Source of the DNA: an uncultured Piscirickettsiaceae bacterium
GTDB lineage: Bacteria > Pseudomonadota > Gammaproteobacteria > GCF-002020875
Reading direction: 5' to 3'
Length of the DNA stretch: 64,000 nucleotides
Assembly: GCA_964344135.1 (NCBI GenBank)
Contig: CAYFMF010000003.1
Coordinates: 442-64,441, forward strand
This document shows, one piece after another, positions 3,235 to 61,556 of this stretch (position 1 is its first letter; every line of letters begins with the position of its first letter). A model generated the notes under the pieces. It saw only the letters and a list, made by a program, of their open reading frames with translations. It ran no database searches and was not told where the DNA came from. The translations under genes and the position numbers were made by a program.

Positions 3235-4752
3235 ATGACGACGATCCAACAAGAAGATTTTATCTCCAGCATCGCTGATGCACTGCAGTTTATCTCCTAC
3301 TACCATCCAACCGATTTCATCCAGGCGATGGGAGAGGCCTGGGAGCGTGAACAGTCCCCTGCAGCCAGGGATGCGATTGCGCAGATCCTGATGAACTCAC
3401 GGATGTCCGCCCTCGGAAAGCGACCGATCTGTCAGGACACCGGCATTGTTGTTGCCTTCATCAAGGTTGGAATGGATGTGCAGTGGGAGGCCACCATGAG
3501 TCTGCAGGAGATGGTCAACGAGGGGGTTCGCCGTGCCTACACTGATCCCGAGAATACGCTGCGCGCCTCGGTACTGGCAGATCCTGCCGGAAGCCGGACC
3601 AACACCGGGGACAACACCCCGGCCGTCGTGCACATGGAGATCATCCCCGGAGACCAGGTCGAGGTCGCACTTGCGGCCAAGGGGGGAGGCTCCGAGAACA
3701 AGTCCAGGTTCGCCAACCTCTCCCCCTCGGCCAACGTCGCCGACTGGGTGGTCGAACAGATTCCCTCCATGGGTGCCGGCTGGTGCCCGCCCGGCATACT
3801 TGGAATCGGTATTGGCGGCACTGCCGAGAAGTCGATGCTGATGGCGAAGGAATCCTTGATGGAGCCGGTTGATATCCACCAACTCATCGAACGCGGCCCC
3901 TCCAGTCGTGCCGAGGAGCTCCGTCTGGAGATCTTCGATCGAGTCAATGGGTTGGGGATTGGTGCGCAGGGGCTTGGGGGGGTGACAACCGTACTCGATG
4001 TCAAGGTCATGGACTACCCGACCCATGCAGCATCACTGCCGGTCAGTCTGATCCCCAACTGTGTTGCCACCCGACACGCCCATTTCCATCTCGATGGAAG
4101 CGGAGCAGCAACACTCACGCCACCCGTTCTCGAGGATTGGCCCGATATCGAATGGGAGCCGAGCGCCGAAACCCGCCGTGTCAATCTCGACTCCATCTCC
4201 CCCGAGCAGATTCAGGAGTGGAAACCGGGAGAGACACTCCTCCTCTCTGGAAGGATTCTCACCGGGCGGGATGCAGCTCACAAGCGAATTTCCGACCTGC
4301 TTGAGAATGGAGAGGGACTTCCGGAAGGGGTCGATTTCACCAACCGCTTTATCTACTATGTTGGACCGGTCGACCCCGTAGATGATGAGGTGGTTGGCCC
4401 CGCCGGCCCCACAACCTCCACCCGCATGGACCCCTTCACCGACATGATGCTGGAGAAGACCGGACTGCTGGGAATGATTGGCAAGGCAGAACGGGGGGCA
4501 GCAACCATTGAGTCTATCAAGAACCACCGCTCGGTCTATCTGATCGCTGTGGGAGGAGCGGCCTACCTGGTGGCACAGGCGGTCCGCAAATCACGCATTG
4601 TCGCCTTCGAGGATCTTGGAATGGAGGCGATCTACGAATTTGAGGTGAGGGATATGCCGGTGACCGTTGCGGTCGACAGCCACGGAGACTCCGTCCACAA
4701 GAGTGGACCGGAGCAGTGGAGGATCAGAATTGAGGAGATGAAGGCTGGATAG
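3235..4752 (+). CDS. Class I (Fe-S dependent) fumarate hydratase
   Basis: About 506 aa from MTTIQQEDF. Catalytic and swivel regions (CQDTGI, GGGSENKS, GIGIGGTAEK) are conserved as in FumA/FumB. The ORF track starts 33 nt upstream at 3202. Confidence 0.85.
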   Translation: MTTIQQEDFISSIADALQFISYYHPTDFIQAMGEAWEREQSPAARDAIAQILMNSRMSALGKRPICQDTGIVVAFIKVGMDVQWEATMSLQEMVNEGVRRAYTDPENTLRASVLADPAGSRTNTGDNTPAVVHMEIIPGDQVEVALAAKGGGSENKSRFANLSPSANVADWVVEQIPSMGAGWCPPGILGIGIGGTAEKSMLMAKESLMEPVDIHQLIERGPSSRAEELRLEIFDRVNGLGIGAQGLGGVTTVLDVKVMDYPTHAASLPVSLIPNCVATRHAHFHLDGSGAATLTPPVLEDWPDIEWEPSAETRRVNLDSISPEQIQEWKPGETLLLSGRILTGRDAAHKRISDLLENGEGLPEGVDFTNRFIYYVGPVDPVDDEVVGPAGPTTSTRMDPFTDMMLEKTGLLGMIGKAERGAATIESIKNHRSVYLIAVGGAAYLVAQAVRKSRIVAFEDLGMEAIYEFEVRDMPVTVAVDSHGDSVHKSGPEQWRIRIEEMKAG

Positions 4753-26786: not shown

Positions 26787-28070
26787 TTGGATATTAACAA
26801 CTTTGAAGCCTATTGTGATCAGTTTGATCGCGCTGTCAACGAGCTGGGGATCGAAGAGAATCTGGCCGAACTGCTGAAACACCCTGACCGTGAACTCCTC
26901 GTGGAACTCCCGCTGGTTCGGGATGATGGCTCCCTGATGGTCCTCCACGGCTATCGGGTTCAACACAACAATGCCCGTGGCCCCTTCAAGGGGGGGCTGC
27001 GTTTTCATGAGTGTGTCGATCTGGACGAGGTGCGTGCCCTCTCAGCACTGATGACCTTCAAGACCGCCCTGGTCGATATCCCCTATGGTGGTGGCAAGGG
27101 GGGGATCCAGGTGGACCCCAAGAAGCTCTCCTCACATGAACTGGAGCAGCTGACTCGAACCTTTGTCCGCGCCATCAGTCCGGTGATCGGGGTCCATACC
27201 GACATCCCGGCACCCGATGTAAACACCAATGCCCAGATCATGGCCTGGTTCATGGATGAATACAGTCAGCTTCACGGCTACAGCCCCGGAATTGTCACCG
27301 GAAAGCCGCTCAATCTCGGAGGCTCGAAGGGAAGAAATGCCGCTACCGGATATGGAGTCTCCATCGTGCTGCGTGAGGTTGCCGAGTACCGCAACATGGA
27401 GCTGAAGGGTGCAACAGTTGTAATCCAGGGATTTGGCAATGTGGGGAGCTGGGCTGCCAAATACCTTGATGAATTTGGCTGCAAGATCATTGCAGTCAGT
27501 GACAGCAAGGGGGCCATTATCGATAACAGTGGGCTCGATATTACGGCACTGATTGAATACAAGCAGACACATGGGACCATCCAGGGTTTTGGAAACAGTC
27601 ACTCCATCGATGCCGAAACACTTCTCTATACACCCTGCGACTTTCTGGTCCCGGCGGCACTGGGTGGCGTGATCCACAAAAAGAACGCCAATAATCTGCG
27701 CTGCAAGATCGTGATCGAGGCAGCCAACGGCCCCACCACCCCAACCGCTGACACGATTTTATGGAGCAAGAACATTCCTGTGGTTCCCGACATCCTGACC
27801 AATGCGGGTGGTGTGATCGCCTCCTACTACGAATGGGTCCAGAACCTGCAGCGCCACTACTGGGAGGAGGAAGAGGTCAACAGCAAGATGGAGAAGAAAC
27901 TGACCAGCGCCTTCTGTGAGGTTGCCGCACTCGCCCACTCCAAAAGGGAGCTCTCCTATCGTACTGCCGCCTTTATGCTGGCAATTAAACGGGTAACCGA
28001 TACCACAACGATTCGTGGACGACTCGGCTCTCCCTGCGCCATCACCCCTGATCTGCCCCAAGACACTTAA
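26787..28070 (+). CDS. gdhA: Glu/Leu/Phe/Val dehydrogenase family, most likely glutamate dehydrogenase
   Basis: 427 aa. KGGLRFH...PYGGGKGG catalytic motif and C-terminal Rossmann domain GFGNVGSWAA. Confidence 0.8.
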   Translation: MDINNFEAYCDQFDRAVNELGIEENLAELLKHPDRELLVELPLVRDDGSLMVLHGYRVQHNNARGPFKGGLRFHECVDLDEVRALSALMTFKTALVDIPYGGGKGGIQVDPKKLSSHELEQLTRTFVRAISPVIGVHTDIPAPDVNTNAQIMAWFMDEYSQLHGYSPGIVTGKPLNLGGSKGRNAATGYGVSIVLREVAEYRNMELKGATVVIQGFGNVGSWAAKYLDEFGCKIIAVSDSKGAIIDNSGLDITALIEYKQTHGTIQGFGNSHSIDAETLLYTPCDFLVPAALGGVIHKKNANNLRCKIVIEAANGPTTPTADTILWSKNIPVVPDILTNAGGVIASYYEWVQNLQRHYWEEEEVNSKMEKKLTSAFCEVAALAHSKRELSYRTAAFMLAIKRVTDTTTIRGRLGSPCAITPDLPQDT

Positions 28071-28476
28071 TCCCGGACACCTCCCAGAAATCTGGCCCAT
28101 AATCGATAAAGATCTCCTCTCCGGGACGGATCCTCTTCAGTGCCTCGATCCGTGCCTTTTTCCAACGTGTTGAGACCACAAACTGTGCATTGGGTTTTGC
28201 CGAATGGTTTACATAGCGGGTGTAATTCTCCCCCACAATCAGACAGTCCCGACAGACCCAGAGCAGATAGTGTGAATCAATATAGGGGCTGCGTTCCGAC
28301 TGGGCATCGGTGATGATCTTCCCCAGATAGGGGCCGATGGTATCCCCTCTCTGGAGCGTCACAAGCGAAAAGAGCCCCTCTCCACACCCACTGATTGTGG
28401 ATGGAGCCACCTCAAAGTGGTGCTCCTCAAACTGTCTCGATTGTCCCATTCTCCACCCGATCTCCTCTCGCCCCAA
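28042..28476 (-). CDS. SET-domain protein (putative protein-lysine N-methyltransferase)
   Basis: 144 aa. GCGEGLFS, RYVNHSAKPNAQF and GEEIFIDYG match SET-domain motifs (GxG, NHS/RxxNH, ELxxDY). Convergent 29-bp overlap with the gdh 3' end. Confidence 0.65.
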   Translation of the reverse strand: MGREEIGWRMGQSRQFEEHHFEVAPSTISGCGEGLFSLVTLQRGDTIGPYLGKIITDAQSERSPYIDSHYLLWVCRDCLIVGENYTRYVNHSAKPNAQFVVSTRWKKARIEALKRIRPGEEIFIDYGPDFWEVSGIKCLGADQG

Positions 28477-28589
28477 ACAGCCGACAAGACACTATTCAAG
28501 CGCTCAATTGAATTGTATTTCAGCCAATTTCATGTTAATATAGCAGAAATTGATGCACCATATTTAAACTCCAAACCCAAGAGGTTTTC

Positions 28590-29339
28590 ATGAAAAAACT
28601 GAATCTTGTAATGCGTACAGCTGCTGGCGCCCTGATAGCCAGCAGCATGGCGATGCCGGTCGCTGCAGAAGAGGCTGCCACTGGGCAGGTTGCTGAACAA
28701 CAGGCAGCGGCTGCCACACAGCAGGCTGAGCCACGCAAGCGCCGTCCACAGAGCCGCCCCCCCATGCCCTATGGCCCTGGGATGACACCCCCTTATGGCA
28801 TGATGCCTCCGGGCATGGCTCCCTATGGCCCTGGCCCCTACGGGATGGCACCTCCACAGGGTTTTGGCCCCTATGGCCCTCCCGGCATGAGCCCCTACGG
28901 CCCACCAATGGGCTATGCGCCCCCCGGCTACGGGCCTGGCGGCTACAATGCCCCCGGTTTCAACCCCTCATTCAACCCACCCACCATGGAGCCACCCTGG
29001 GGGAATGACAAGAACTTTGACATGAGCCCGATGAAATTCTGGCCGGTTCCCGGAACAGGAAACCCCTGGCACTACAAGCCATGGGAGCCCGGTGCCCCCT
29101 GGGGTGATTCCGACAAGTTCTCCGATCCACCCGATGAGGCCTTCCACGAGGCGGAGGATTTCCTCGCCGACGCCCCAAGAATGCCTGGTGGCTGGGAGCT
29201 GCCCAACATCTCCATGCCAAGCCCCTTCGAGATCGGAGAGCAGGTTGGAGACCAGAGCTGGCTGCTGCCGGAAAACTTCAAGATGCGTGACCGCAATCGT
29301 CCCAAGCGCTACCGGAAGTACTTCCAGAACGAGCAGTAA
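28590..29339 (+). CDS. Secreted low-complexity Pro/Gly/Tyr/Met-rich repeat protein
   Basis: 249 aa. Signal peptide MKKLNLVMRTAAGALIASSMAMPVAA, then reiterated PYGPG/PPGM units (PYGPGMTPPYGMMPPGMAPYGPGPYGMAPP...). Good RBS, genome-typical GC3. Confidence 0.55.
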   Translation: MKKLNLVMRTAAGALIASSMAMPVAAEEAATGQVAEQQAAAATQQAEPRKRRPQSRPPMPYGPGMTPPYGMMPPGMAPYGPGPYGMAPPQGFGPYGPPGMSPYGPPMGYAPPGYGPGGYNAPGFNPSFNPPTMEPPWGNDKNFDMSPMKFWPVPGTGNPWHYKPWEPGAPWGDSDKFSDPPDEAFHEAEDFLADAPRMPGGWELPNISMPSPFEIGEQVGDQSWLLPENFKMRDRNRPKRYRKYFQNEQ

Positions 29340-29350: not shown

Positions 29351-29521
29351 ATGGGAGGCTGGGGCTGCCCGCATGATGCCAACGGCATCTGCCTGAAGGT
29401 ACCGAAGACCCGCTGCGATCCGGGGATGAAGGGGTGCGTTCTGGCCGGCCGCTTCCGCTTCAGCAAGGAGCAGAAGAACCGCCCCGGTGGCCCCAAAAAG
29501 CGCAGCTACGAGACAGAGTAG
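29351..29521 (+). CDS. Candidate 56-aa Cys4 mini-protein (not in the ORF track because it is under 60 aa)
   Basis: MGGWGCPHDANGICLKVPKTRCDPGMKGCVLAGRFRFSKEQKNRPGGPKKRSYETE. Lies 12 nt after the upstream stop and immediately before a strong intrinsic terminator. Four Cys and a basic tail. Confidence 0.3.
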   Translation: MGGWGCPHDANGICLKVPKTRCDPGMKGCVLAGRFRFSKEQKNRPGGPKKRSYETE

Positions 29522-29545: not shown

Positions 29546-29575
29546 AGAGCCCTCAACTGAGGGCTCTTTTTTTTG
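29546..29575 (+). terminator. Rho-independent terminator
   Basis: agagccctc-aact-gagggctct followed by TTTTTTTT. Confidence 0.7.
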
Positions 29576-29763: not shown

Positions 29764-30354
29764 ATGAACATACTAATCGCTGACGATCACTACCTCTATC
29801 TGCAGGGGCTGCGCCTGCTACTCAATGGGCAGCACAAGAAGCTGCGCTACCATGAGGCCAGGGATCTCGCCTCTGTGCTGGATCAGCTGGGCCACCACCC
29901 CATTGAGCTGCTGCTGCTCGATCTGCGGATGCCCGACATGGAGGGGTTTGACGGGGTCTACCAGATCCGTGAGCGCTACCCTGAGCTGCCGATTGTGATC
30001 ATTACCAGCTCAGAGAGCCGCACCGATGTCCAGGCTGCAATCAATGCCGGGGTTCAGGGGTATATCCTCAAGTCACTGGATCACAAGGCGATGACCGATG
30101 CGCTCAATGAGGTGGTTGCCGGCAACCCGTTCTTCCCCGACCTCAGTCAGCCACTCTCTGGCCCACTGGAGAATCTGACCAATCGGCAGCTGGAGATCCT
30201 GCACCTGATCAATGACGGGATGGGGAATCGTGAGATTGGCAAGCGGCTGGGGATTACCGAAGGGACCGTGGGGCAGCATGTTCACGCCCTGCTCAGCGCA
30301 CTGAAGGTAAAAAACCGTTCCGAGGCGGCGCGCATCCTTCGTGAGTATGAGTAG
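29764..30354 (+). CDS. NarL/LuxR-family response regulator (REC domain plus LuxR helix-turn-helix)
   Basis: MNILIADDHYLYLQGL...LLLDLRMPDMEGF receiver domain. C-terminal NRQLEILHLINDGMGNREIGKRLGITEGTV LuxR helix-turn-helix motif. Confidence 0.85.
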   Translation: MNILIADDHYLYLQGLRLLLNGQHKKLRYHEARDLASVLDQLGHHPIELLLLDLRMPDMEGFDGVYQIRERYPELPIVIITSSESRTDVQAAINAGVQGYILKSLDHKAMTDALNEVVAGNPFFPDLSQPLSGPLENLTNRQLEILHLINDGMGNREIGKRLGITEGTVGQHVHALLSALKVKNRSEAARILREYE

Positions 30355-30982
30355 CACCCACCCGCACCACGCACTGGGGCAGTTTCTCTCCACAGCAATT
30401 CACGACATCAAGCAGCCGCTCAATGTGCTACAGATGTATCTGGGGATCCTGCAGGAGCAGGCCGGCCTCCCAAAGGGGGACGAATTGACCCAGATCGCAA
30501 ATGGCTCCCTGAAATCACTACAGTCAATGCTCAACCTGCTCAGCAACTGGGCGCGTGCTGATGAAGGGGGACTCAGGATCCAGCCAGAGTGGGTAACGCC
30601 ATCAACATGGTCTCAACATCTCGAGAAGCAGGAGTGGCTCTCCCACCCCCTCCCGGCAGTGGATCTCTCTGCTGAGGAGACTCATCGGTCGATCGATCTT
30701 GCCCTGCTCACCCAGACCCTGCGCGACATCCTGACCCTGCTCCCCAGGGGGACAGCCATCACCGCAACCCCCACCCCATGGAGCCTTGAACTCCAGCTCA
30801 CCCCGCCACTACAGCGTGGCAGTGATGGTGAGCTTCTGTTTAGCGATGCCCTGCATCAACTGGCAGTGGATGGCGGAGGCGCCGTCCTGAAGGCGCTCGG
30901 CTTTCAGCAGCGGCTGGTAGAGCGTGATGGGGCGGTTGTGATTGCCATTCAGGGGGCGGAGAGTATGGTTGCTGCGCCATGA
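30341..30982 (+). CDS. HisKA (DHp) domain protein lacking recognisable ATPase boxes
   Basis: 213 aa. H-box AIHDIKQPLNVLQMYLGIL, but no N/G1/G2 motifs. Overlaps the regulator gene by 14 bp and the downstream kinase gene by 4 bp. Confidence 0.5.
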   Translation: MSMSSTHPHHALGQFLSTAIHDIKQPLNVLQMYLGILQEQAGLPKGDELTQIANGSLKSLQSMLNLLSNWARADEGGLRIQPEWVTPSTWSQHLEKQEWLSHPLPAVDLSAEETHRSIDLALLTQTLRDILTLLPRGTAITATPTPWSLELQLTPPLQRGSDGELLFSDALHQLAVDGGGAVLKALGFQQRLVERDGAVVIAIQGAESMVAAP

Positions 30983-33261
30983 TCGAGCTGACCAGAGCGT
31001 GGTTGTTCCGAGTTGCCACCCTGTTACTGCTCGCCTTTGGAGCCGGGGCCACCCATGCCGAGGAGGAGCTGGTTCCGGTCAGGCTGCAGCTGAACTGGTT
31101 CCACCAGTTTGAGTTTGCCGGCTTCTATGCGGCGCTGGAGCAGGGCTACTACCGTGATGCGGGGCTGGATGTAACGATCATCCCCGCCACCTTCACGACA
31201 GTTGCCGCCGATGAGCTGACCAGTGGAAATGCCGACTATGCGGTGGGCTACGCGGGCACCATGCTGAAGAAGGCCGCCGGGCAGCCCATTGTCGCCCTCA
31301 AGTCCATCCTTCAGTACTCCCCCTACGCCCTGATGGTACGTGCCGACTCCGCAATCCAGCAACCCGCGGATCTGCGACACAAGCGAATCATGATGCCCCC
31401 CAACCCCAACGCCTCGGAACTGTTTGCGATGCTGCAGGAACATGGTATTAAGCCAAACCAGATTCTGCGCATGGACCACAGCCACAAGCTTGAGGATCTC
31501 ATCTCAGGCAAGGCGGATGCCATCAGCATCTACACCACCAACGAGCCCTTCCGCCTCAGAGAGATGGGGTTTGAGCCACGCATCTTTGACCCCCGGGACA
31601 GCGGAGTGGACTTTTATGGTGACATTCTGATCACAACCGAACAGAAGATCCAGGAGCGCCCAGAGGAGGTACAGCGCTTTGCCGAGGCGACCATGATGGG
31701 ATGGGAGTATGCATCCACCCACCCCACAGAGCTGATCCAGACCATTGTTGAGCACTACAACGGAAAAGAACAGGGAGGGCTGGAAAAAAGTTTTGATGCA
31801 CTCCAGTTTGAGGCGACCGAGATTATCAAAAGGGTCTCTCCCATTCTGATCGATATCGGCCATATGAGTCGCAAACGGTGGCAGAGGTCGCTGTTGACCT
31901 ATCTGGATCAGGGGATGGTGAATCAGCGGTACCGGGACCCCGCTGAACAGGAGCGGTTACTGGATGAGTTTCTCTACACCCCCCCGATCGCAATCACCCT
32001 GCCCCATCTGCTCACCCACTATCGCACCGAGGCCACCATTGTATCCGTGATACTTGTCATCATCAGCGGGCTCATCCTCCTCTACCTTATTCAGTTGAGG
32101 AGGACGGTGGAGGCAACCCTCAACAAGGAGGAGTTCATGGCGAGAATGAGCCATGAGATTCGAACCCCGATGAATGGCATCATGGGGGTGCTGGAGTTGC
32201 TGCGGCTGACCCCGCTCAACCGGGAACAGCAGGATCACCTCAATACCATGCAGAGCTCGGGGACAAGGCTGTTGACCATCATCAACGGGATTCTCGACCT
32301 CTCCAAGATTGAGGCGGGAAAGATCAACCTTGAATCAACCCCATTTGACCTCTTCCGGGTTCTGCAGGAGATTGACGACCTGATCTCCCCACTGGCTCAC
32401 AACAAGGGGGTCAGACTCACACTGGCCAATGACCCCCAACTGCCACAGTGGGTGAAGGGAGACCCGACCCGCCTGCAGCAGATTCTGCTCAATCTGACCG
32501 GCAACGGAATCAAGTTTACCTCCCATGGTGGAGTGACTCTACACACTACACTGGTTGAGAGCAGTCAGGGGCAGGCCCTCATTGAGTTCACTGTCGAGGA
32601 TAGCGGAATCGGCATCAGCGATGAGGCGCAACACCATATCTTTGAGCAGTTCACCCAGGCCAGCGCTGAGACGACCCGTCACCACGGTGGGACTGGACTG
32701 GGGCTGACCATCTCCCAGCAGCTGGTTCAGAAGATGGGCAGCACCATCGTGCTCTCCAGTACTCCGGGAGAGGGAAGCCGCTTCAGCTTCAGGCTCGATC
32801 TGGAGATCGCCACCCCACCGCAGGGGCCGGAGGAGAGTCGGTCCGCAAGAACTGCCCTGGATCCAGCACTGCTCCCCTGCGCTGTACTGCTGGTTGAGGA
32901 CAATGAGACCAACCGGATTGTGGCCCAGAAACTGCTGGAACACATTGGCTGCGAGGTGGAGAATGCAGAGAATGGGGAGGTTGCCCTCAACCGGGTCGTC
33001 GGGCGCAACACCCCCTACGATCTGATCCTGATGGATCTGAACATGCCACTGATGGATGGGGTGGAGGCAGCCCGCCGTATCCGGGGGGGCGGAATCGAAA
33101 CCCCCATTGTTGCACTGACCGCAGAGATCCAGTCCGATGGCAGGCGCTGCCATGAGGCGGGGATTGATGACCTGCTCTACAAGCCATTCTCCATGAGTGA
33201 TCTCGTTGAGAAGATCAACCAGTGGGTCGGAGCTGAGAGCAAGCCCTCACAGAAACAATAA
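30979..33261 (+). CDS. Hybrid sensor histidine kinase/response regulator with a periplasmic SBP-like (NMT1/SsuA-TauA-type) sensor domain
   Basis: 760 aa. Signal/TM, SBP-like domain (LQLNWFHQFEFAGFY...), TM, H-box SHEIRTPMNGI, N-box LNLTGNGIKFT, G1 DSGIGI, G2 GGTGLGLTIS, C-terminal REC domain (LLVEDNETN...DLILMDLNMP). Confidence 0.85.
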   Translation: MIELTRAWLFRVATLLLLAFGAGATHAEEELVPVRLQLNWFHQFEFAGFYAALEQGYYRDAGLDVTIIPATFTTVAADELTSGNADYAVGYAGTMLKKAAGQPIVALKSILQYSPYALMVRADSAIQQPADLRHKRIMMPPNPNASELFAMLQEHGIKPNQILRMDHSHKLEDLISGKADAISIYTTNEPFRLREMGFEPRIFDPRDSGVDFYGDILITTEQKIQERPEEVQRFAEATMMGWEYASTHPTELIQTIVEHYNGKEQGGLEKSFDALQFEATEIIKRVSPILIDIGHMSRKRWQRSLLTYLDQGMVNQRYRDPAEQERLLDEFLYTPPIAITLPHLLTHYRTEATIVSVILVIISGLILLYLIQLRRTVEATLNKEEFMARMSHEIRTPMNGIMGVLELLRLTPLNREQQDHLNTMQSSGTRLLTIINGILDLSKIEAGKINLESTPFDLFRVLQEIDDLISPLAHNKGVRLTLANDPQLPQWVKGDPTRLQQILLNLTGNGIKFTSHGGVTLHTTLVESSQGQALIEFTVEDSGIGISDEAQHHIFEQFTQASAETTRHHGGTGLGLTISQQLVQKMGSTIVLSSTPGEGSRFSFRLDLEIATPPQGPEESRSARTALDPALLPCAVLLVEDNETNRIVAQKLLEHIGCEVENAENGEVALNRVVGRNTPYDLILMDLNMPLMDGVEAARRIRGGGIETPIVALTAEIQSDGRRCHEAGIDDLLYKPFSMSDLVEKINQWVGAESKPSQKQ

Positions 33262-33297
33262 ACCCCTCGAGAGAGGGGCCTATCAGGTATGGCGCGG

Positions 33298-33849
33298 TTA
33301 TCTCCAGTAGGGAGGCGGTGCCATCATTGGCGGCATGGCCGGTGCAAATGGCGGCTGTCCACCACCCATCCCCATAGGGGCAGGTCCATAGGGGTAGGGA
33401 GCCGGACCATAACCATAAGGGGCCGGTGGAGCTCCATAGTATTGTGGAGCATAGTAGTTATCCCCGTAGTAGCGGTTCTCTCCACGACTGCGGCCACGTC
33501 CCTTGTACTTCTTCTCTCCGCTTCCCCTGCCCTCGCCATGAGCCTCGCCCTTGAGCTTGGTGTCGAGATTGAGATCCCACTCCACATCGGTATTGAGGTC
33601 GCTCATTGCATCTCCCATCCCCATGCTGTCCATCATCGAATCGACGGCACCCCAGCCGTGCTCCCCACCAAACGGGCCACGCTTATCATTACTACCCCAG
33701 CCAAAGGGGGCCATGGGGTGGTCAGAACGGTCTCCCCAGTCACTCCAGCCATCCTGCATATCCCAATCTTTCGGGTTCCAGAAGGCCGAGGCACCGCTTG
33801 AGAGCGCCATTGCTGTTGCAGCCACAACGATTTTTACCATGTATTTCAT
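33298..33849 (-). CDS. Secreted low-complexity Gly/Pro/Tyr/Met/Trp-rich protein
   Basis: 183 aa. Signal peptide MKYMVKIVVAATAMALSSGASA; WGDRSDHPMAPFGWG, MMDSMGMGDAM, YYGDNYYAPQYYGAPPAPYGYGPAPYPYGPAPMGMGGG. Compositional paralogue of the 28590..29339 protein. Confidence 0.5.
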   Translation of the reverse strand: MKYMVKIVVAATAMALSSGASAFWNPKDWDMQDGWSDWGDRSDHPMAPFGWGSNDKRGPFGGEHGWGAVDSMMDSMGMGDAMSDLNTDVEWDLNLDTKLKGEAHGEGRGSGEKKYKGRGRSRGENRYYGDNYYAPQYYGAPPAPYGYGPAPYPYGPAPMGMGGGQPPFAPAMPPMMAPPPYWR

Positions 33850-33940
33850 AATTCAGACTCAAACCAGGGTTGGATTAATCAACCGTTTCAGTAAATGCTT
33901 TAATTGTACCCTCTTTTACCCCTTTAATCAAGCAATAATG

Positions 33941-34008
33941 GGGGTCAGGTCTTTCATTTTGCATTGGTGGCAAGGTGGCCCACCAATGTAAAATGAAAGA
34001 CCTGACCC
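33941..34008 (+). repeat. Near-perfect 30-bp inverted repeat (long hairpin) with an 8-nt loop
   Basis: ggggtcaggtctttcattttgcattggtgg-caaggtgg-ccaccaatgtaaaatgaaagacctgacccc. The single mismatch is a G-U wobble only on the + strand transcript. Confidence 0.7.
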
Positions 34009-34020
34009 CCCCCATAACAG

Positions 34021-34725
34021 TTATATCGGCAGCAGCACCATGCTGGCAAGGGAGTGTACCACCCCCGTCAGCTGACGGTTGGTCTGGTCAGCAATCAGGA
34101 TCGCAATCAGGTCCTGGTTTGCGGCCGCCCGGCTGATCTGGTTACTGACCTGCTGGCCGTTCTGCAGCAGCAGGGGTCTCCTTCCCTCCACCCCTGCCTG
34201 CTCAACCATCCTCAATGCGGTCTCGAAATTTCGGGCGGTATTGTAGATCTTCTGCGGGTCGAGCTGATCGAGCATATAGAGCTCAGTGGTGCCGTTATAG
34301 GAGCGCATGGTCATTGAGACCAGTGCTGCGGTAAAGAGCAGCACCCGATCCCCCTGGTAGCTCTCATCAAAGGCGAGATGGAGCAGGTTGTTGCCCCGTG
34401 CGCGCCCAAACTCCGGGAAGTTCCAGCGAATCCGTTGGCCGAAAACCCGCTTCACATTGGCCTCTATGGATGGGTATTGGGCCCGCTCCAGCTGCTGCGG
34501 ATTGGCGGCGTAGAGCTCTGCCATCATCATCCGCAGTGACCTCAACACCTCACGCTGCCCCAGCTCGGCGGCACGGCTGAGGTCCGATTTTGCCAGCATG
34601 CGGACGTCGTAACTGCCGGCATCGGAGTGGATCTTCTTGTAGCGCTCAGGGTTGGTGACACAGCCACTCCCCATCAACAGGGTGGCAGCAAGGCAGAGGA
34701 GGACAGACAACCGCGAGCAACTCAT
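34021..34725 (-). CDS. Hypothetical secreted protein or lipoprotein
   Basis: 234 aa. Leader MSCSRLSVLLCLAATLLMGSGC (Cys after the leader suggests a lipobox). No recognisable catalytic motif. Confidence 0.45.
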   Translation of the reverse strand: MSCSRLSVLLCLAATLLMGSGCVTNPERYKKIHSDAGSYDVRMLAKSDLSRAAELGQREVLRSLRMMMAELYAANPQQLERAQYPSIEANVKRVFGQRIRWNFPEFGRARGNNLLHLAFDESYQGDRVLLFTAALVSMTMRSYNGTTELYMLDQLDPQKIYNTARNFETALRMVEQAGVEGRRPLLLQNGQQVSNQISRAAANQDLIAILIADQTNRQLTGVVHSLASMVLLPI

Positions 34726-53940: not shown

Positions 53941-54612
53941 ATGCTCGTAAAAATTACTGTTCTGTCACTGGCAGCTCTTCTTTCACCCATTGCCGGCGCC
54001 TGGGATGGTCTGGACCGTGGAGGCGAGATTGAGGAGTCAATGACACTCACTCCCGACATTGAGAACGGAAAAAAACTCTATAAAACCTGTGCCTTCTGTC
54101 ACACACCGGATGGGTGGGGCATGGAGCCCGGAATCGGTAAATACCGGGTTCCGGGAACCTATCCACAACTGGCGGGCCAACACCAGTCGGTACTGATCAA
54201 GCAGCTCTACGATATCCGTCAGCTCAATCGGGACAACCCCACCATGTACCCCTTTACACTGGCCCGCTATATTGGAGGTGCCCAGGATGTTGCCGATGTA
54301 ACCGCCTACATCACCACCCTCTCCATCAACCACTTCAATCAGCATGGGGATGGATCTGATCTGGCGCTTGGAAAAGAGCTCTACGAGGAGAACTGCGTCA
54401 AGTGTCACGGGGAGAATGGTGAGGGAGATACTGAAAACTTCTACCCGCGCCTCTCCAACCAGCACTACCCCTATATGCTGAGACAGTTTGTCTGGATCAA
54501 GGATGGAAAGCGCAGAAACGCCAACAGCAAGATGGTCAAACAGATCCAGAGATTTACCTATCGCGACATGAAGGCGGTCATTGACTATGCCTCCAGACTG
54601 GATGCCCAGTAA
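53941..54612 (+). CDS. Periplasmic diheme cytochrome c (c4-like)
   Basis: 223 aa. Signal peptide, two CxxCH motifs (CAFCH, CVKCH) in two cytochrome-c domains with Met ligand regions. Confidence 0.75.
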   Translation: MLVKITVLSLAALLSPIAGAWDGLDRGGEIEESMTLTPDIENGKKLYKTCAFCHTPDGWGMEPGIGKYRVPGTYPQLAGQHQSVLIKQLYDIRQLNRDNPTMYPFTLARYIGGAQDVADVTAYITTLSINHFNQHGDGSDLALGKELYEENCVKCHGENGEGDTENFYPRLSNQHYPYMLRQFVWIKDGKRRNANSKMVKQIQRFTYRDMKAVIDYASRLDAQ

Positions 54613-54673
54613 CCTGCCTGTAGAAGAATAAAACACAACAACAGTCATAGAGCCTCTAGAGGGAGAGACCTAG

Positions 54674-55378
54674 ATGAAAAAACTACTGATTCCAGCCCTG
54701 ATCTTTATTGCCGGCATGGTGGCACTTGGGGGCGTCAATGTCTTCTTTGCCGCTACCAACGAGATGGAGTTCTGTACCTCCTGCCACTCGATGAAGATCA
54801 ACCTCGAGGAGTATCGCCACACCGTCCACTACGAGAATCAGTCCGGTGTTCAGGCCACCTGCTCGGACTGTCATGTACCCAAACAGTTCATCCCCAAGGT
54901 AATGGCCAAGATCATGGCGGCCAAGGATGTATACCACTGGGTCATGGGCACCATTGAGCCTGATGAGTCCCAACTGGTTTCAGCGGACAGCAGTGGCAAC
55001 TGTCCCGACCTCTTTATCCCTGTTGAGGAGGGCTCCAACCTCTGCGTCCCCAATTATGGGGATCCCTATAGCGAGGATGAGATGAGCGAGGAGGCTGAGG
55101 CGCGTCGTGAGGCGGCACTGGAGAAATACAATGCCTACCGCTGGAAGATGGCCAACAGTGTCTGGGACAAGATGAAGGCCACGGATTCACGTGAATGCAG
55201 AAACTGTCACTCCTTCGACAACATGAACCTCGACGAGCAGGACCGCAGTGCACGCAAGAAGCATGGTCGTGCCACCGACAAGGGTCAGACCTGTATCGAC
55301 TGCCACAAGGGGATAGCCCATGCCGAGCCGGATGAACCTGATGATGAAGAGGAAGAGGAAGAGGATGAAGAGGCATAG
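54674..55378 (+). CDS. NapC/NirT-family membrane-anchored tetraheme cytochrome c (quinol dehydrogenase type) with an acidic C-terminal tail
   Basis: 234 aa. N-terminal TM. Four CxxCH motifs (CTSCH, CSDCH, CRNCH, CIDCH). Tail DEPDDEEEEEEDEEA. Confidence 0.8.
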   Translation: MKKLLIPALIFIAGMVALGGVNVFFAATNEMEFCTSCHSMKINLEEYRHTVHYENQSGVQATCSDCHVPKQFIPKVMAKIMAAKDVYHWVMGTIEPDESQLVSADSSGNCPDLFIPVEEGSNLCVPNYGDPYSEDEMSEEAEARREAALEKYNAYRWKMANSVWDKMKATDSRECRNCHSFDNMNLDEQDRSARKKHGRATDKGQTCIDCHKGIAHAEPDEPDDEEEEEEDEEA

Positions 55379-55408
55379 CCCAGCCCACTGGATGCCGGCC
55401 TATCGGAA

Positions 55409-56365
55409 ATGAATCGGAGCAGTATCATGAAAACAATAACCACCATCGTACTATCCCTCCTCTTCTCCAGTGCCTGCCTCGCTGATGCCGCACTGGACCA
55501 GTCACTGCGCAGGGCTGTGATCAATGGGGAGCTTGCTGAGGTTAAACAGCTGATCAGCCAGGGTGCTGATATCAACAGTAGTGGAGAGTTTGGCCACACC
55601 CCACTGATCTATGCGGCCGAGGATGGTCAGATTGAGATTGCCCAGCTGCTGATTGAACATGGTGCCCGTATCGACCGGCAGACCAGGGGAGGATACACCG
55701 CCCTCTCCGCCGCTGCCGATGAAAGCAGCATTGCCCTGGTCTCCCTGCTCCTGAAGGCTGGAGCCGACCCACATATCAAGACCCGTAATGGAATGGATGC
55801 GCTGATGATTGCGGTCCGCAGCGGAGATGCAGATGTGATCTCGATGCTGATGGCCTATAACAGCAACATCAACACCGCAAACCGCCATGGACAGACCCCG
55901 TTGATGATCGCCTCCCAGAGCGGCAATATCGATGTGGTCCATATGATGTTGCTGGCTGATGCCGGCATGAACATCCGTGACAAGAATGGCAGAACCGCCC
56001 TGATGATCGCCGCAGACACCCAGAGCCTGGAGGTGGTAACCGCCCTGCTGAATCGTGGGGCCTTAACCTCGGTGACGGATGATCATGGTGCCACCGCCCT
56101 GCACTATGCAATCAAGCGCAAGGGAAGCGCCATTGCAGAGACCCTTCTCAACCGTGGCGCCAATGTCAATGTGGCAGATAACGACAGCTGGACCCCGTTA
56201 ATGGATGCGGTCAGCCGTGGAAACAGCAAACTGGCAAAACTGCTGATACAGCGAGGTGCCGATGTAGAGGTCCATGATCAGGAAGGCCACAGCCTCCCCC
56301 AGATCGCCGAGATGAACCGCCGCCACCAGCTGGCTGAATATCTTCAGGGGCTTATCAAGCGCTAG
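55409..56365 (+). CDS. Periplasmic ankyrin-repeat protein
   Basis: 318 aa. Signal peptide (start may be the MKTITTIVLSLLFSSACLA methionine at about 55427). About 8 tandem 33-residue ANK repeats (GxTPLxxAA...GADxN). Confidence 0.8.
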   Translation: MNRSSIMKTITTIVLSLLFSSACLADAALDQSLRRAVINGELAEVKQLISQGADINSSGEFGHTPLIYAAEDGQIEIAQLLIEHGARIDRQTRGGYTALSAAADESSIALVSLLLKAGADPHIKTRNGMDALMIAVRSGDADVISMLMAYNSNINTANRHGQTPLMIASQSGNIDVVHMMLLADAGMNIRDKNGRTALMIAADTQSLEVVTALLNRGALTSVTDDHGATALHYAIKRKGSAIAETLLNRGANVNVADNDSWTPLMDAVSRGNSKLAKLLIQRGADVEVHDQEGHSLPQIAEMNRRHQLAEYLQGLIKR

Positions 56366-56600
56366 CCGGTTACGGTAGCACCAACACCAAACCAATGCCG
56401 GATAACCTACAGAGCACTCCACCATGGAGAGAGCTCCTGTAGCTTAACGGCACAGAACCCACTGACGGGATTGGTGGCTCCGAAGCATGCGGGTTACTCG
56501 ATCACGAGCACCGTTCTCCAACAATATTGAGTACTTGATCTAGAGACCTAACTCGAATAAGGTACTGTTTCTGGTTATTCATGTTCAGGGGGAGAGGTAT

Positions 56601-57218
56601 ATGAGAAAGGTACTGCTTGGCACAATATTAACAACCATTCTGGCATCGCCGGTAACCATGGTTACAGCCGCAGAGGAGGCCGCTGCGGAGAAGGCTGCTG
56701 TAGCAGAGGATATCTCTGTCCACGTTCAAGAGAGTCGTGCTCTGGCCAAGAAGCTGTTTGTCAAACTGAAACATGCGCTGGTTACGGGGATGAAGGCGGG
56801 AGGCCCCTCTACGGCAATCACCGCCTGTAACGTACAGGCGCAGCCCATTACCCGTGCAGCATCCAACCGCCGTACCGGGCTCAATATTCGTCGCACCAGT
56901 CTGCGCCTGCGCAATCCAAAGAATGCCCCCGATGCCTGGGAGATTCGGGTTCTGGAACAGTTTGAGGGGCGCTTTGCCGCAGGTGAGGATCCCAGCAAGG
57001 TGGAGTACCACGAGGTGGTGGAACAGAAAGGTGGCGAACGACTCTTCCGTTACATGAAAGCGATCCCGGCCAGCAAGCCCTGCATGGTCTGTCATGGCGA
57101 GCTGATTGCACCGGATGTACTGAAGACCATTCGGGATCTCTATCCCTATGAGCAGGCAACCGGCTTCAAGCCGGGAGATCTTCGTGGTGCCTTCTCGGTC
57201 ACCAGAGAGCTCGATTGA
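56601..57218 (+). CDS. DUF3365/Tll0287-like periplasmic heme-c protein
   Basis: 205 aa. Signal peptide, PAS-like body, single C-terminal CxxCH (CMVCHG), as in Tll0287-family proteins. Confidence 0.55.
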   Translation: MRKVLLGTILTTILASPVTMVTAAEEAAAEKAAVAEDISVHVQESRALAKKLFVKLKHALVTGMKAGGPSTAITACNVQAQPITRAASNRRTGLNIRRTSLRLRNPKNAPDAWEIRVLEQFEGRFAAGEDPSKVEYHEVVEQKGGERLFRYMKAIPASKPCMVCHGELIAPDVLKTIRDLYPYEQATGFKPGDLRGAFSVTRELD

Positions 57219-57285
57219 TGTTGTAGTCCATTCAACAATAAGTTAAGAGCACCATGCCTGTGGAGGCGGGAATGGTGCGCTGTCG

Positions 57286-59283
57286 ATGTCAGCAGCGGAA
57301 GGGAGGAGTGCTGTGAACCGATTTGTACAGATCACAAGACTATGGGTGCTGATGCTTCTGCTTGGAGTATACGGCACAACCCTCTATGCGGCATCCGACA
57401 ACTCGAAGACGGGTGCAAAGAAAATCGTGCCCAACAAGGTCTGTATTAAATGCCACTCCGATGAGGAAAACAAATTTGAGACCCTCTATGAGGATGAGGA
57501 TGATGAGGAAGGGACCGAGGTCTACATCTACGTCGATGAGGAGAAGTTTGAGGAGAGTGTTCACGGCAAACAGAACTGTGTAGGGTGTCACACCAACATC
57601 ACCAAGAAGTACCACCAGGAACAGCCGGTGATCAGCGTGAGCTGTATCCAGTGCCACAAGGAGGAGTGGGAGAAGCAGCAGGGGGAGGAGCATCCCAGGT
57701 ATGATCGCCTCGATGTGGTGATGCAGCAGATCGACGGCTATATGGATTCGGTCCATGCCCGCCCCAGCATCGCAGACCAGTCCAGGACCAACGCCACCTG
57801 CCATGACTGTCACGACCCACATAACATCGGCACCCTCGGCAGTGAGGCCCGTGCCGACCATCGACTGAAGAACCCAGAAGTCTGCGGACGCTGTCACGAA
57901 GAGCAGAAAGAGGCCTACCTCACCTCCGCACATGGCAGGGAGGTGGTGGAGAATGGCAATAGTGAGGCCGCGGTCTGTTCCGACTGTCACACTACCCACA
58001 ACATCGACTCCCCGGACCGGGATCCCATCAAGCTGACGATTACCCAAAACTGTGGGGATTGCCATGAGGATGCCTACAAGACCTACCGCTCCTCCTACCA
58101 TGGGCAGGTAAACCGCCTGGGGTACACCAATACCGCAAAGTGTTATGACTGCCACGGCAGCCATGAACTCAAGAAGGTAGAGGACCCAACCTCAAGCGTC
58201 CATCTGGAGAACCGCCTGGAGACCTGCCAACAGTGTCATGAGGATGCGCCAGAGGGGTTTTTGAGCTTCCACGCCCATGCCAATGTCGATGACTATGAGC
58301 GTTATCCGGAGATCTATCTCACTGCAAAGTTCATGAACTACCTGATCATTGCGGTCTTTGCCTTCTTCTGGACCCATGTCCTGCTCTGGTTCCATCGTGA
58401 GTACAAGGATCGCAAGCAGGGCAAGGGGTATCAGCCTCCACCTGCAGCGCTGTTGGCAGCCAAGGAGCGGATCTATTTCCGTCGCTTCAGTGCAACCTGG
58501 CGGGTCATTCACCTGCTGTTTGCGGTCAGCACCATGACACTGGTGCTCACCGGGTCATCCCTGCTCTTCTCGCATACCGCCTGGGCTCCGGTCGTGATTG
58601 GTCTGCTGGGTGGGCCGGAGATCGAGGCCATTATTCACCGTACCGCAGCGACTACCTGGCTGTCGGTCTTCCTGGTCCACTTTGGAATTGCCAGCTACAA
58701 CATCATCAAGAACCGCAAGAGCTTCCGCTGGTTCGGCCCCACCTCCATGTTGCCCAACTGGCAGGATCTGCGTGATGTGGTTGCCATGTTCCGCTGGTTC
58801 TTCGGAAGAGCTGAACGTCCCGACTTTGACCGCTGGTCCTACTGGCAAAAGTTTGATTACTGGGCACCATTCTGGGGTGCAGGAGTGATTGGGCTGAGCG
58901 GAATGATGCTCTTCTCGCCAACCCTGGCTGCTACCGTCCTCCCTGGATACGTCTTCAACATTGCAACCATCATCCATGCGGAAGAGGCACTGCTGGCAAC
59001 CATGTTCCTGTTTACGGTCCACTTCTTCAATGCCCACTTCCGCCCGGACAAGTTCCCGATGAGCACAACCATCTTTACCGGGGCGATCCCGCTGGATGAG
59101 TTCAAGCATGAGCACCGTCTGGAGTATGAGCGCCTGAAAGAGAGTGGAGAGCTCTCCAGGTACCTGATCAAGAAGCCATCAAAGGCGATGCAGACCGGCT
59201 CCAACCTGCTCGGTGCCATCCTGATCTTCTCCGGATTGACGCTGTTGACCCTGGTGATGATCGGTTATATCAGCACGATGTAA
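57286..59283 (+). CDS. CbcL-like fusion: periplasmic nonaheme cytochrome c domain joined to a diheme cytochrome b (HydC/FdnI-type) membrane domain
   Basis: 665 aa. Nine CxxCH motifs (CIKCH, CVGCH, CIQCH, CHDCH, CGRCH, CSDCH, CGDCH, CYDCH, CQQCH), then about 5-6 TM helices with conserved His pairs (VIHLLF, IIHRTA, FLVHFG, TIIHAEE...TVHFFNAHF). Confidence 0.75.
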   Translation: MSAAEGRSAVNRFVQITRLWVLMLLLGVYGTTLYAASDNSKTGAKKIVPNKVCIKCHSDEENKFETLYEDEDDEEGTEVYIYVDEEKFEESVHGKQNCVGCHTNITKKYHQEQPVISVSCIQCHKEEWEKQQGEEHPRYDRLDVVMQQIDGYMDSVHARPSIADQSRTNATCHDCHDPHNIGTLGSEARADHRLKNPEVCGRCHEEQKEAYLTSAHGREVVENGNSEAAVCSDCHTTHNIDSPDRDPIKLTITQNCGDCHEDAYKTYRSSYHGQVNRLGYTNTAKCYDCHGSHELKKVEDPTSSVHLENRLETCQQCHEDAPEGFLSFHAHANVDDYERYPEIYLTAKFMNYLIIAVFAFFWTHVLLWFHREYKDRKQGKGYQPPPAALLAAKERIYFRRFSATWRVIHLLFAVSTMTLVLTGSSLLFSHTAWAPVVIGLLGGPEIEAIIHRTAATTWLSVFLVHFGIASYNIIKNRKSFRWFGPTSMLPNWQDLRDVVAMFRWFFGRAERPDFDRWSYWQKFDYWAPFWGAGVIGLSGMMLFSPTLAATVLPGYVFNIATIIHAEEALLATMFLFTVHFFNAHFRPDKFPMSTTIFTGAIPLDEFKHEHRLEYERLKESGELSRYLIKKPSKAMQTGSNLLGAILIFSGLTLLTLVMIGYISTM

Positions 59284-59292
59284 CAGCAGCCT

Positions 59293-59331
59293 CCCCTTAT
59301 ATATGCGGCCATAGCCGTCATATATAAGGGG
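59293..59331 (+). terminator. Strong GC-clamped hairpin downstream of the CbcL-like gene
   Basis: ccccttatatatg-cggccatagccg-catatataagggg: 13-bp stem. Weak or absent U-tract. Confidence 0.45.
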
Positions 59332-59510
59332 GGGGTGAACTGCCTCCTGCGCAAATTATTTCCTTGCATCAGAAGTTTTATTTGAATTATTATAGGAGTG
59401 TTCTGCGCGGGGGGCTGCCGGACTGATTAACCATCTATTTGACTCCTCCCGAATAGAGCAAAATTAATATTAATTTTAAATAAAATCTCTAAATAACTTT
59501 AGGAGGAGAT

Positions 59511-60107
59511 ATGAAAGCAACGAAACTTGCAGTAGCCGTTCTCGGCAGCTGTGCAATCAGTTTCTCTGCGTTCGCAGGAAACATGACAGGGGCTGACGGA
59601 TCCATGCTCGCCAACACCTGTGCTGGTTGTCACGGCACAGACGGAGCCAGCGTTGGTCCAGCCATCCCATCCATTGGTGGAATGTCTGCAACCTACATCA
59701 CCGACATGATGGCAGCATACAAGTCTGGTGATACCAACAGCACCATCATGGGCCGTATCGCAAAGGGCTACAGTGAGGATGAGGTTGGTGCGATCGCCAA
59801 CTTCTTCGCCGATCAGCCACAGTCCCGTGCAGACCAGTCCTTTGACAGTGCCAAGGTCGCCAAGGGGCAGAAGCTGCATGACAAGTACTGTGAGAAGTGT
59901 CACTCTGAGGGTGGCGCACTGGCAGATGACGATTCCGGCATTCTCGCTGGGCAGCTGATGCCTTATCTTGAGTACAGTATGGAGGATTTCCACAATGGTG
60001 ATCGCTCTATGCCGAAGAAGATGAAGAAGAAGGTCAAGAAGCTGAACAAGAAGGAAGGCGACGCTGGTGTTGACGCTATCTTCCACTACTACGCAAGCCA
60101 GCGCTAA
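59511..60107 (+). CDS. fccA: Flavocytochrome c sulfide dehydrogenase, diheme cytochrome subunit
   Basis: 198 aa. Signal peptide, two CxxCH motifs (CAGCHG, CEKCHS). Immediately upstream of fccB. Contains a Lys-rich insertion PKKMKKKVKKLNKKEG. Confidence 0.75.
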   Translation: MKATKLAVAVLGSCAISFSAFAGNMTGADGSMLANTCAGCHGTDGASVGPAIPSIGGMSATYITDMMAAYKSGDTNSTIMGRIAKGYSEDEVGAIANFFADQPQSRADQSFDSAKVAKGQKLHDKYCEKCHSEGGALADDDSGILAGQLMPYLEYSMEDFHNGDRSMPKKMKKKVKKLNKKEGDAGVDAIFHYYASQR

Positions 60108-60122
60108 GGAGGAGCTATAACA

Positions 60123-61451: not shown

Positions 61452-61495
61452 AGCAGTAGAGGCGTTGTCTTAACAAGCAACGCTGGAAAAAGAGA

Positions 61496-61525
61496 CCCTC
61501 AGAAGGCAACTTCTGAGGGTTTTTT
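61496..61525 (+). terminator. Rho-independent terminator after fccB
   Basis: ccctcagaag-gcaa-cttctgaggg followed by TTTTTT. Confidence 0.8.
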
Positions 61526-61556
61526 CATGAACATGGAAACAGAGTGTACGCTCTAT

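Follow-up and report, generated by a model that had tools for sequence, protein, structure and literature searches.

A kinase-dead histidine-kinase remnant whose gene overlaps that of a NarL-type regulator in uncultured marine Gammaproteobacteria: a presumed histidine phosphotransferase

To our knowledge, kinase-derived dimeric histidine phosphotransferases are represented by only a few experimentally studied cases, namely Spo0B, ChpT and PhyT. Such proteins escape domain-based annotation and are labelled 'histidine kinase' or 'hypothetical'. Spo0B, from the sporulation phosphorelay of Bacillus subtilis (SPOB_a/SPOB_ab), is a dimeric phosphotransferase built on a four-helix bundle, and its C-terminal kinase-like α/β domain is unable to bind ATP. 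DivL and RetS are pseudokinases that act by protein–protein contact, independently of the phospho-acceptor His, at the place of which DivL has a Tyr. Spo0B transfers phosphate reversibly between two receiver domains, according to the work cited within PMC5898713 and PMC3433190. ChpT of Caulobacter crescentus (CC_3470, PF10090), which serves the CckA–ChpT–CtrA relay, is a soluble protein of about 210 aa, in which an N-terminal DHp-like hairpin with the transfer His is followed by a C-terminal Bergerat-like domain without a working ATP lid (properties taken from PMC3433190). PhyT (formerly PhyP), known from Sphingomonas melonis and other Alphaproteobacteria, is a phosphotransferase with a possible phosphatase role; it is membrane-anchored and has a periplasmic domain and an HRxxN-type DHp (PMC5898713).

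Here, we describe a further candidate for a protein of this kind, encoded within a 64,000-nucleotide stretch of DNA (the window) from the genome of an uncultured Piscirickettsiaceae bacterium (GCA_964344135.1, contig CAYFMF010000003.1). Its gene lies on the + strand at 30347..30982, between the genes of a NarL/LuxR-type response regulator and of a hybrid sensor kinase. In the mechanical list of open reading frames it spans 30341–30982 and gives a product of 213 aa from a GTG at 30341. All homologues, however, start at an ATG located 17–20 codons 5' of the His of the H-box, and the counterpart of this codon in the window is ATG 30347, which is therefore the likely start; the true length of the protein is most likely 211 aa. 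From this ATG the overlap with the regulator gene, whose stop lies at 30354, is 8 bp (ATGAGTAG). An earlier note, made from the letters of this DNA, had put the overlap at 14 bp, which holds for the GTG start only, while the overlap itself stands. The 4-bp overlap with the hybrid-kinase gene described there was also seen, as ATGA at 30979, so that both overlaps exist and are suggestive of the translational coupling proposed in the note. A frameshift joining the gene to a neighbour, which the note had allowed for, was checked and is not the case. The frame is bounded by stops, with no more than 10 further open codons 5' of GTG 30341, other genomes contain intact homologous genes with products of matching length (196–213 aa), and the hybrid kinase further on begins with an N-terminal leader of its own; origin as a frameshift product or a gene fragment was thus rejected. 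One homologue, that of locus L017, carries a frameshift or an assembly error, and its two frames combined give a full-length protein.

The N-terminal part of the protein is a DHp (HisKA) helical hairpin (aa 8–74, 30362..30562, + strand), recognised by the Pfam HisKA model (PF00512) at aa 12–75 with E 6.5e-10 and 39.4 bits against a cut-off of 26.9; no other credible Pfam domain was found in the protein. The H-box, HDIKQPL, occupies aa 21–27 in the 213-aa numbering and is followed by N28; the His codon lies at 30401–30403. This H-box, called clear in the earlier note, proved to be invariant in all 13 sequences of the family, although overall identity within the family is only 34–43%. Residues H21, D22, Q25, P26, L27, N28, Q31, Y33, G35 and Q38 are all invariant, and mean pairwise identity is 57% for the DHp against 29% for the part that follows it. 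Hydropathy revealed no hydrophobic segment, and there is practically no sequence N-terminal of the DHp helix, from which it follows that the protein is soluble and has no sensor domain.

The ATP-binding domain that should follow a DHp in a kinase could not be recognised by profile methods. HATPase_c had no match in the protein at E<=1 in Pfam, and the HATPase_c, HATPase_c_2, HPTransfase, Spo0B and HPt models matched none of the 13 family members at E<=10. As a positive control we used the ten nearest true kinases, all of which match HATPase_c, with E of 1e-21 to 1e-27; HATPase_c, if present, would thus have been detected. The outcome of the HMM scan proposed in the earlier note is therefore that PF00512 is present and PF02518 absent, and the recognisable HATPase_c domain that would have spoken against its reading was sought and not found. 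When a hidden HATPase_c was searched for by Pfam at E<=10, by a profile search of PDB sequences and by hhalign against the neighbour kinase, only the first CA helix was detectable by sequence. In the PDB-sequence search the match runs from the DHp into this helix, pairing 'iDlaLlqqtlqDli' of the family with the kinase 'cDhnqirQvlqNLi'.

We mapped the ATP-binding boxes by aligning the family to 126 true kinase cores. The N-box NLxxNA corresponds to D129…L133-L134-P135, the kinase consensus LrNLlsNA being aligned with LQD..LLP of the family, and the position of the Mg-binding (second) Asn is taken by the invariant L133. The columns of G1 (DxGxG), the F-box and the lid are gaps in all family members, and G2 (GxGxG) is replaced by A-x-x-A/G-G; the mapping of boxes within the deleted region depends on the alignment, while the glycine motifs are absent in every mapping. 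Past the N-box position about 80 residues remain, where a typical kinase has, by our estimate, roughly 110. With all ATP- and Mg-binding motifs lost, self-phosphorylation from ATP is very unlikely, and judging from its sequence the protein almost certainly cannot use ATP.

Structure prediction of the C-terminal half, also suggested in the earlier note, was run. The AlphaFold model of the window protein (pLDDT 80.4, pTM 0.76) has helices at 8–41 and 48–74, followed by an α/β domain at 83–205, and the model of a 34%-identical family member (P0007, pLDDT 79.7) has the same topology; the alignments behind the two models are shallow, with 8 and 13 sequences. Both models thus predict that the CA (Bergerat) α/β fold is present after the DHp, and by this prediction the C-terminal half (aa 83–205, 30587..30955, + strand) is a vestigial CA-type fold from which the N, G1, F and G2 boxes are gone. 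The residues that are invariant or nearly so in this remnant are D119, L122, L133-L134-P135, W147, D169-x-L-x-Q-L, G179 and G187. The earlier note's view of the protein as kinase-dead and missing N, G1 and G2 is supported by the motif alignment and agrees with models of a CA fold without a lid. Its description as 'HisKA-only' is right as regards the ATP-binding boxes and an understatement as regards the fold, since a vestigial CA domain is present in the models.

Of the described phosphotransferases, ChpT comes nearest. The two share length (about 210 aa), solubility and the order of domains, a DHp-like hairpin with the transfer His coming first and a Bergerat-like domain that has no working ATP lid coming second, and by analogy the kinase-dead protein would likewise act between a hybrid kinase lacking HPt and a DNA-binding regulator. 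Foldseek aligned its model over the full length with the ChpT structures 4fmt, 4fpp and 4qpj, at E of about 2e-4 to 7e-4. However, PF10090 matches 0 of the 13 members at E<=10, the H-box follows the standard HisKA pattern, and in structure true kinases match more closely than ChpT does. The last two observations argue for independent degeneration, apart from ChpT. The genetic setting differs as well, with a gene that overlaps its regulator's gene and a regulator of the NarL type (CtrA is of the OmpR type), and the clade, which is that of marine sulfur-oxidising Gammaproteobacteria, is another one. Spo0B is more distant: the family has no match to the Pfam Spo0B models (PF14689/PF14682), the H-box sequences are unrelated, and the donor of Spo0B is the single-domain regulator Spo0F, not the REC of a hybrid kinase. 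PhyT, too, is kinase-derived, has a degenerate ATPase domain and is encoded at the locus of the regulator that it serves; unlike this membrane-anchored protein, the one described here is soluble, has no sensor and carries a HisKA H-box, HDIKQ. Monomeric HPt domains (PF01627) have no Pfam match in the family, and the modelled hairpin needs a dimer for a bundle. The closest relatives in sequence are canonical class-I histidine kinases of the 'SHDLRQPL' subgroup of HisKA (NahK/ErcS-like kinases as well as hybrid kinases with PAS or CHASE3), to which homology extends over the DHp and the first CA strand and helix (profile positions 5–126). These kinases have a full HATPase_c, sensor domains and, in 6 of 10, a REC, whereas the kinase-dead family is without all three.

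An exhaustive HMM search of 1.84 billion representative sequences delimited the family to one fragment and 12 full-length members, which are 196–213 aa long and match with E of 1e-46 to 1e-87. Next below these come generic kinases, from E 6e-10, which match only profile positions of about 5–126; by this measure the family is discrete and sharply bounded. All genome matches fall in MAGs of uncultured marine Gammaproteobacteria, which bear the label 'uncultured Piscirickettsiaceae' or 'Gammaproteobacteria'; judged by their names, several of the recruited MAGs (e.g., SI037 and NORP) may come from water-column samples. The window genome has 57% GC and encodes SoxA, SoxYZ, flavocytochrome c sulfide dehydrogenase and putative sulfur-globule proteins, which mark the organism as a sulfur oxidiser. 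In the literature we found no paper that describes the family or deals with PRJEB17505, and no characterised regulatory circuit for this clade of uncultured marine sulfur oxidisers.

The partner of the kinase-dead protein is the product of the upstream gene (29764..30354, + strand), a NarL/LuxR-type response regulator of 196 aa from ATG 29764, the mechanical reading frame being open from 29707. Pfam assigns to it Response_reg (E 7e-25) and GerE (E 2e-14); compared with the named families of NCBIfam it falls below every cut-off, the closest being NarL (113 bits) and ErdR (104 bits). Its orthologues share 58–70% identity with it and are far more conserved than the kinase-dead partner, and D7, D8, D53, T81, K103 and nearly the whole helix-turn-helix are invariant among them. 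The regulators are thus predicted to be phosphorylation-competent, and they probably bind the same operator. In every locus examined, a REC+GerE regulator of 196–197 aa is encoded directly 5' of the kinase-dead gene, and at every junction that was read the two frames share 8–11 bp, most often 8 bp, including the regulator's stop.

The hybrid sensor kinase encoded downstream (30979..33261, + strand, 760 aa) was characterised by Pfam, hydropathy and inspection of residues. It consists of an N-terminal hydrophobic leader, which in its sequence alone resembles a signal peptide, an NMT1/THI5 domain, one strongly hydrophobic segment (aa 348–377), HisKA (H392), HATPase_c and REC (D686). The solute-binding domain (PF09084, E 9e-50) is periplasmic; the SBP-like N-terminal domain recognised in the earlier note is now assigned to the NMT1/THI5 type. 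No HPt was found in this kinase by Pfam, while many of its full-length relatives (e.g., P0158, P0168, P0181 and P0224) end in one (PF01627). It can be concluded that the receiver in this type of kinase is normally a relay intermediate, and that versions without HPt need a separate histidine carrier. An ad hoc HMM for HPt, which as a control matched 56 of 120 retrieved kinase homologues, matched none of the open reading frames in the 64-kb window. Two other NMT1 hybrid kinases without HPt (P0198 and P0212) are orphans, with no regulator, HPt or remnant nearby.

The hybrid kinase adjoins the pair only in the lineage of the window, that is in the window itself, in near-identical contigs (P0001) and at loci L009 and L093–95. 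At the latter loci a kinase 54% identical to the window's stands in the same arrangement, within conserved synteny (AP endonuclease, glutamate dehydrogenase, SET through GST, ABC transporter); at L009 and L093 the kinase-dead and kinase genes are 13 bp apart and do not overlap. No orthologue above 54% identity was found elsewhere in a database of 5.8 billion proteins, and the genomes of the other loci appear to be without an orthologue. An obligate three-gene system was thus rejected. The constant partner is the regulator, present at every locus, and not the kinase, adjacent in one lineage only; judged from this gene order, the module is the regulator plus the remnant, with the hybrid kinase as a lineage-specific addition. 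The kinase-centred picture of the earlier note, in which the protein is 'wedged between' its neighbours and may inhibit the 760-aa kinase, is not supported by this gene order. The idea that the kinase-dead protein is a duplicate of the adjacent hybrid kinase was also discarded: the H-box types differ (HDIKQPLN vs HEIRTPMN), and hhalign aligns only 46 columns of the two DHp domains, at 20% identity. By eye, the specificity positions of DHp α1 also differ between the two proteins, an observation that is neutral for a relay.

The limits of the operon were considered as well. Upstream, a terminator-like hairpin with a T-run (AGAGCCCT-CAACTG-AGGGCTCT, 29546..29575, + strand) stands 3' of a small conserved open reading frame (29351–29521). 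It may close the upstream unit and form the 5' limit of the three-gene operon; this assignment is tentative, as the hairpin was read by eye and is absent from the list of a consensus terminator scan. Downstream, a GC-rich hairpin at 33256..33285, between the convergent genes of the hybrid kinase and a putative sulfur-globule protein, was reported by the scan as a terminator-like site on the − strand; it is the likely operon end, and its palindromic stem could be usable on both strands.

In the common arrangement elsewhere, a divergent sugar-nucleotide operon lies upstream of the pair and a convergent MCP(CZB) gene downstream, followed by soxZ–soxY; several loci have a GGDEF gene between the MCP gene and soxZ–soxY, and most have an HD-GYP regulator beyond. 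Overall, most loci of this context contain GGDEF and/or HD-GYP or EAL genes. At other loci the gene directly 3' of the pair is soxZY (L012), Mfd (L014), an aminotransferase (L016) or succinate dehydrogenase (L017). At most of the loci examined, soxYZ or genes for putative sulfur-globule proteins lie next to the pair. A comparison of shared 9-mers revealed no operator motif common to the promoter of the operon and the putative sulfur-globule genes that flank it, and the one palindrome that is conserved occurs only once in the window as an exact match. A candidate target promoter contains a palindrome at 28494–28513.

We consider the chances about even that the kinase-dead protein is a dimeric histidine phosphotransferase, similar to ChpT and Spo0B, for the NarL-type regulator whose gene it overlaps, and that it possibly acts also as a phosphatase. 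Two copies would form a four-helix bundle, each model chain contributing a two-helix hairpin. His21 would take a phosphoryl group from the receiver of a hybrid kinase without HPt, a role that in the window genome would fall to the NMT1-sensor kinase transcribed with it (H392 to D686 to His21), and would pass it to Asp53 of the regulator, which would then control transcription; judged from the gene neighbourhoods, its targets may be sulfur-oxidation or sulfur-globule genes. As the transfer is reversible, the same protein would drain the phosphorylated regulator backwards when the kinase is off, giving an apparent phosphatase role. The protein is competent in its His and kinase-dead in every member, 13 of 13 having HisKA above threshold and no HATPase_c. 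At every locus it is paired with a regulator whose phospho-acceptor residues are retained. In hybrid kinases, phosphate usually moves between the DHp and a receiver, and 6 of the 10 nearest true kinases are hybrid kinases. What makes us prefer the phosphotransferase reading is that the adjacent hybrid kinase lacks the HPt that many of its relatives carry. Among the three roles offered in the earlier note, the phosphotransfer intermediate is therefore the best fit, next to a kinase composed of HisKA, HATPase_c and REC, while that of an inhibitor of the kinase was not supported. Against a relay counts that most loci have no adjacent hybrid kinase, that the family belongs by sequence neither to ChpT nor to Spo0B, and that a separate HPt protein may be encoded in the genome outside the 64-kb window.

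The main rival, which seems unlikely to us but deserves serious attention, is a dedicated constitutive phosphatase. The regulator would then be phosphorylated by another kinase or by acetyl phosphate, and the kinase-dead protein would only remove the phosphate and so set the half-life of the signal. The missing hybrid kinase at most loci is as expected here, and so are the lack of a sensor domain and the fixed ratio to the regulator that overlapping genes give. A T or N at His+4 supports phosphatase activity in HisKA kinases, and the family has an invariant D at His+1 and an invariant amide, Q25, at His+4. However, the nearest true kinases, too, have Q at this position in their consensus (SHDLRQPL), so it is inherited and not a specialisation. 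The strict invariance of His exceeds what many phosphatase mechanisms need. It would also be unusual for a regulator to be co-encoded only with its phosphatase and never with a donor, and the HPt-less hybrid kinase of the same operon would be left without a route to the regulator. There is a precedent for such a reading, as PhyT/PhyP was itself first interpreted as a phosphatase (PMC5898713). Computation does not separate a relay from a pure phosphatase, since both use the same DHp–REC interface.

It is quite improbable that the protein is one half of a split kinase, with a CA domain supplied in trans by another protein, e.g., that of the hybrid kinase phosphorylating His21 directly. An intact H-box and a partner regulator, both usual in two-component pairs, would suit such an arrangement, as would the want of an ATP site of its own. 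However, no locus has a separate CA-only gene, and, going by the models, the retained vestigial CA would occupy the docking place of a foreign CA.

An extension of the phosphotransferase reading, just as doubtful, would have the pair work as a portable 'socket' with an origin separate from those of ChpT, Spo0B and PhyT. Any hybrid kinases without HPt in a given genome would deliver phosphate to His21, and the CA remnant, with LLP, W147 and D169-x-L-x-Q-L, would be a gate for a ligand or partner such as c-di-GMP, switching between forward transfer and back-drain and thereby controlling soxYZ and sulfur-globule genes. The CA domain of CckA binds c-di-GMP. The CA remnant is conserved at few positions but fast-evolving.

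Least probable of all, and only a slim chance in our view, is a heterodimerising or titrating modulator of the RetS-on-GacS kind, whose DHp would pair with that of a kinase and block or redirect its autophosphorylation: the protein does show structural similarity to RetS-type kinase-region structures and weak DHp similarity to the neighbour kinase, but it has a kinase beside it in one lineage only and the regulator as its constant partner, its H-box is of another type than the kinase's, with the short and weak alignment given above, the 13-bp gap leaves the two genes uncoupled in L009 and L093, an inhibitor needs no invariant phospho-acceptor His, and DivL and RetS are both large multidomain sensors, in contrast to a family that keeps His and the whole H-box invariant.

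The concept of a kinase-derived phosphotransferase is already established, and the protein described here is a plausible new component of such a relay. As far as sequences can tell, a kinase seems here to have degenerated once more, and independently, into what is presumed to be a phosphotransferase. The family is distinguished by the obligate overlap with the gene of a NarL-type regulator, by its restriction to one clade of marine sulfur oxidisers, all uncultured, and by frequent sulfur-oxidation neighbours. For annotation this means that the structure of a protein with 'HisKA without HATPase_c' should be examined before the protein is dismissed as a fragment. If the favoured reading is true, the family would add another independent origin, unusual in being hard-wired to its regulator by gene overlap, and it would give a hybrid kinase that has a periplasmic solute-binding sensor and no HPt a route to a transcription factor. 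With such sulfur genes as its neighbours at most loci, either soxYZ or those of putative sulfur-globule proteins, the pair is a candidate for the control of sulfur oxidation in these bacteria.

The three-gene operon, which encodes the NarL-type regulator (29764–30354, + strand), the kinase-dead protein (30347–30982, +) and the hybrid kinase (30979–33261, +), is bracketed in the window by genes of secreted Pro/Gly/Tyr-rich proteins, one on each side. The downstream gene (33298–33849, −) encodes a protein of 183 aa and is a putative sulfur-globule gene; its product matched the Pfam model SGP (sulfur globule protein) weakly and below threshold (E 7.6e-4, 20.7 bits vs 26.7). The upstream one (28590–29339, +) encodes a 249-aa protein for which no Pfam match was found, and its composition is similarly repetitive (PYGPG…). 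Both genes are kept beside the same operon in L093, a homologous locus from the window's own lineage (65% and 73% identity), and these flanking genes may be targets of the NarL-type regulator.

A perfect palindrome, ATTCAA-N8-TTGAAT (28494–28513), was found ~80 bp upstream from the 249-aa gene; it is retained at the same position in L093 and could be a transcription-factor site. It is the single exact copy in the window; when up to two mismatches were allowed, 4 sites were found vs 1.5 expected by chance. Between the 249-aa gene and the operon lies a Cys-rich ORF of 56 aa (MGGWGCPHDANGICLKVPKTRCDPGMKGCVLAGRF…; 29351–29521, +), and its counterpart in L093 is a called gene of 58 aa (3605–3781). 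On the other side, the spacer that separates the putative sulfur-globule gene from the gene of a 234-aa protein (34021–34725, −) contains a long imperfect inverted repeat (about 33938–34013), whose arms span ~30 nt (GGGGGTCAGGTCTTTCATTTT.CATTGGTGG / CCACCAATG.AAAATGAAAGACCTGACCCCC). This repeat is not conserved in the counterpart region of L093, and it could represent a terminator or a repeat element.

SET and ankyrin-repeat domains are associated mainly with eukaryotes, and genes encoding them are common in host-associated bacteria. Both kinds are present in this sulfur-oxidiser genome: a 144-aa SET-domain protein is encoded at 28042–28476 (−; E 7e-16), by a gene also kept in L093, and a 318-aa ankyrin-repeat protein at 55409–56365 (+; E 4e-68).

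A variant of the kinase-dead protein was found in L017, a homologous locus from a marine gammaproteobacterial MAG, where the homologue (834–1420) is frameshifted. Frame 2 stops at GWDGGLPAV, and the remainder runs on in frame 3 with the family-conserved LLP…W…LGF motifs; the regulator upstream of this split homologue is intact. The split marks this homologue as a pseudogene or else stems from an error in the assembly. A very distant protein, P0060, recruited by the HMM search, is of the same size as the family (212 aa), comes from an AT-rich organism (FAHDVKQPLSVL…) and shows a weak HisKA match only, with no HATPase_c. Kinase remnants of a similar kind may occur beyond the limits of this family.

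Genes for sulfur oxidation and electron transfer are also clustered in the window (53941–63881). Among their products are cytochromes c, a tetrahaem protein of the NapC/NirT type, a multihaem–cytochrome b fusion (57286–59283), the flavoprotein of flavocytochrome c sulfide dehydrogenase (60123–61451), SoxA (62097–62957, −) and SoxZ/SoxY (63069–63881, −). This SoxYZ is 86% identical to the SoxYZ encoded beside the regulator–remnant pair elsewhere. The pair thus lies ~30 kb from soxYZ in the window, but next to it in other genomes. In most of the loci with the common context (L001–L016) that extend far enough, genes for chemotaxis and c-di-GMP turnover lie near the pair, interleaved with soxYZ. 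Among them are a gene for an MCP that carries a CZB zinc-binding domain and, depending on the locus, one for a GGDEF protein, an HD-GYP regulator or a REC-GGDEF-EAL protein. This arrangement hints that sulfur oxidation, motility and c-di-GMP signalling are linked.
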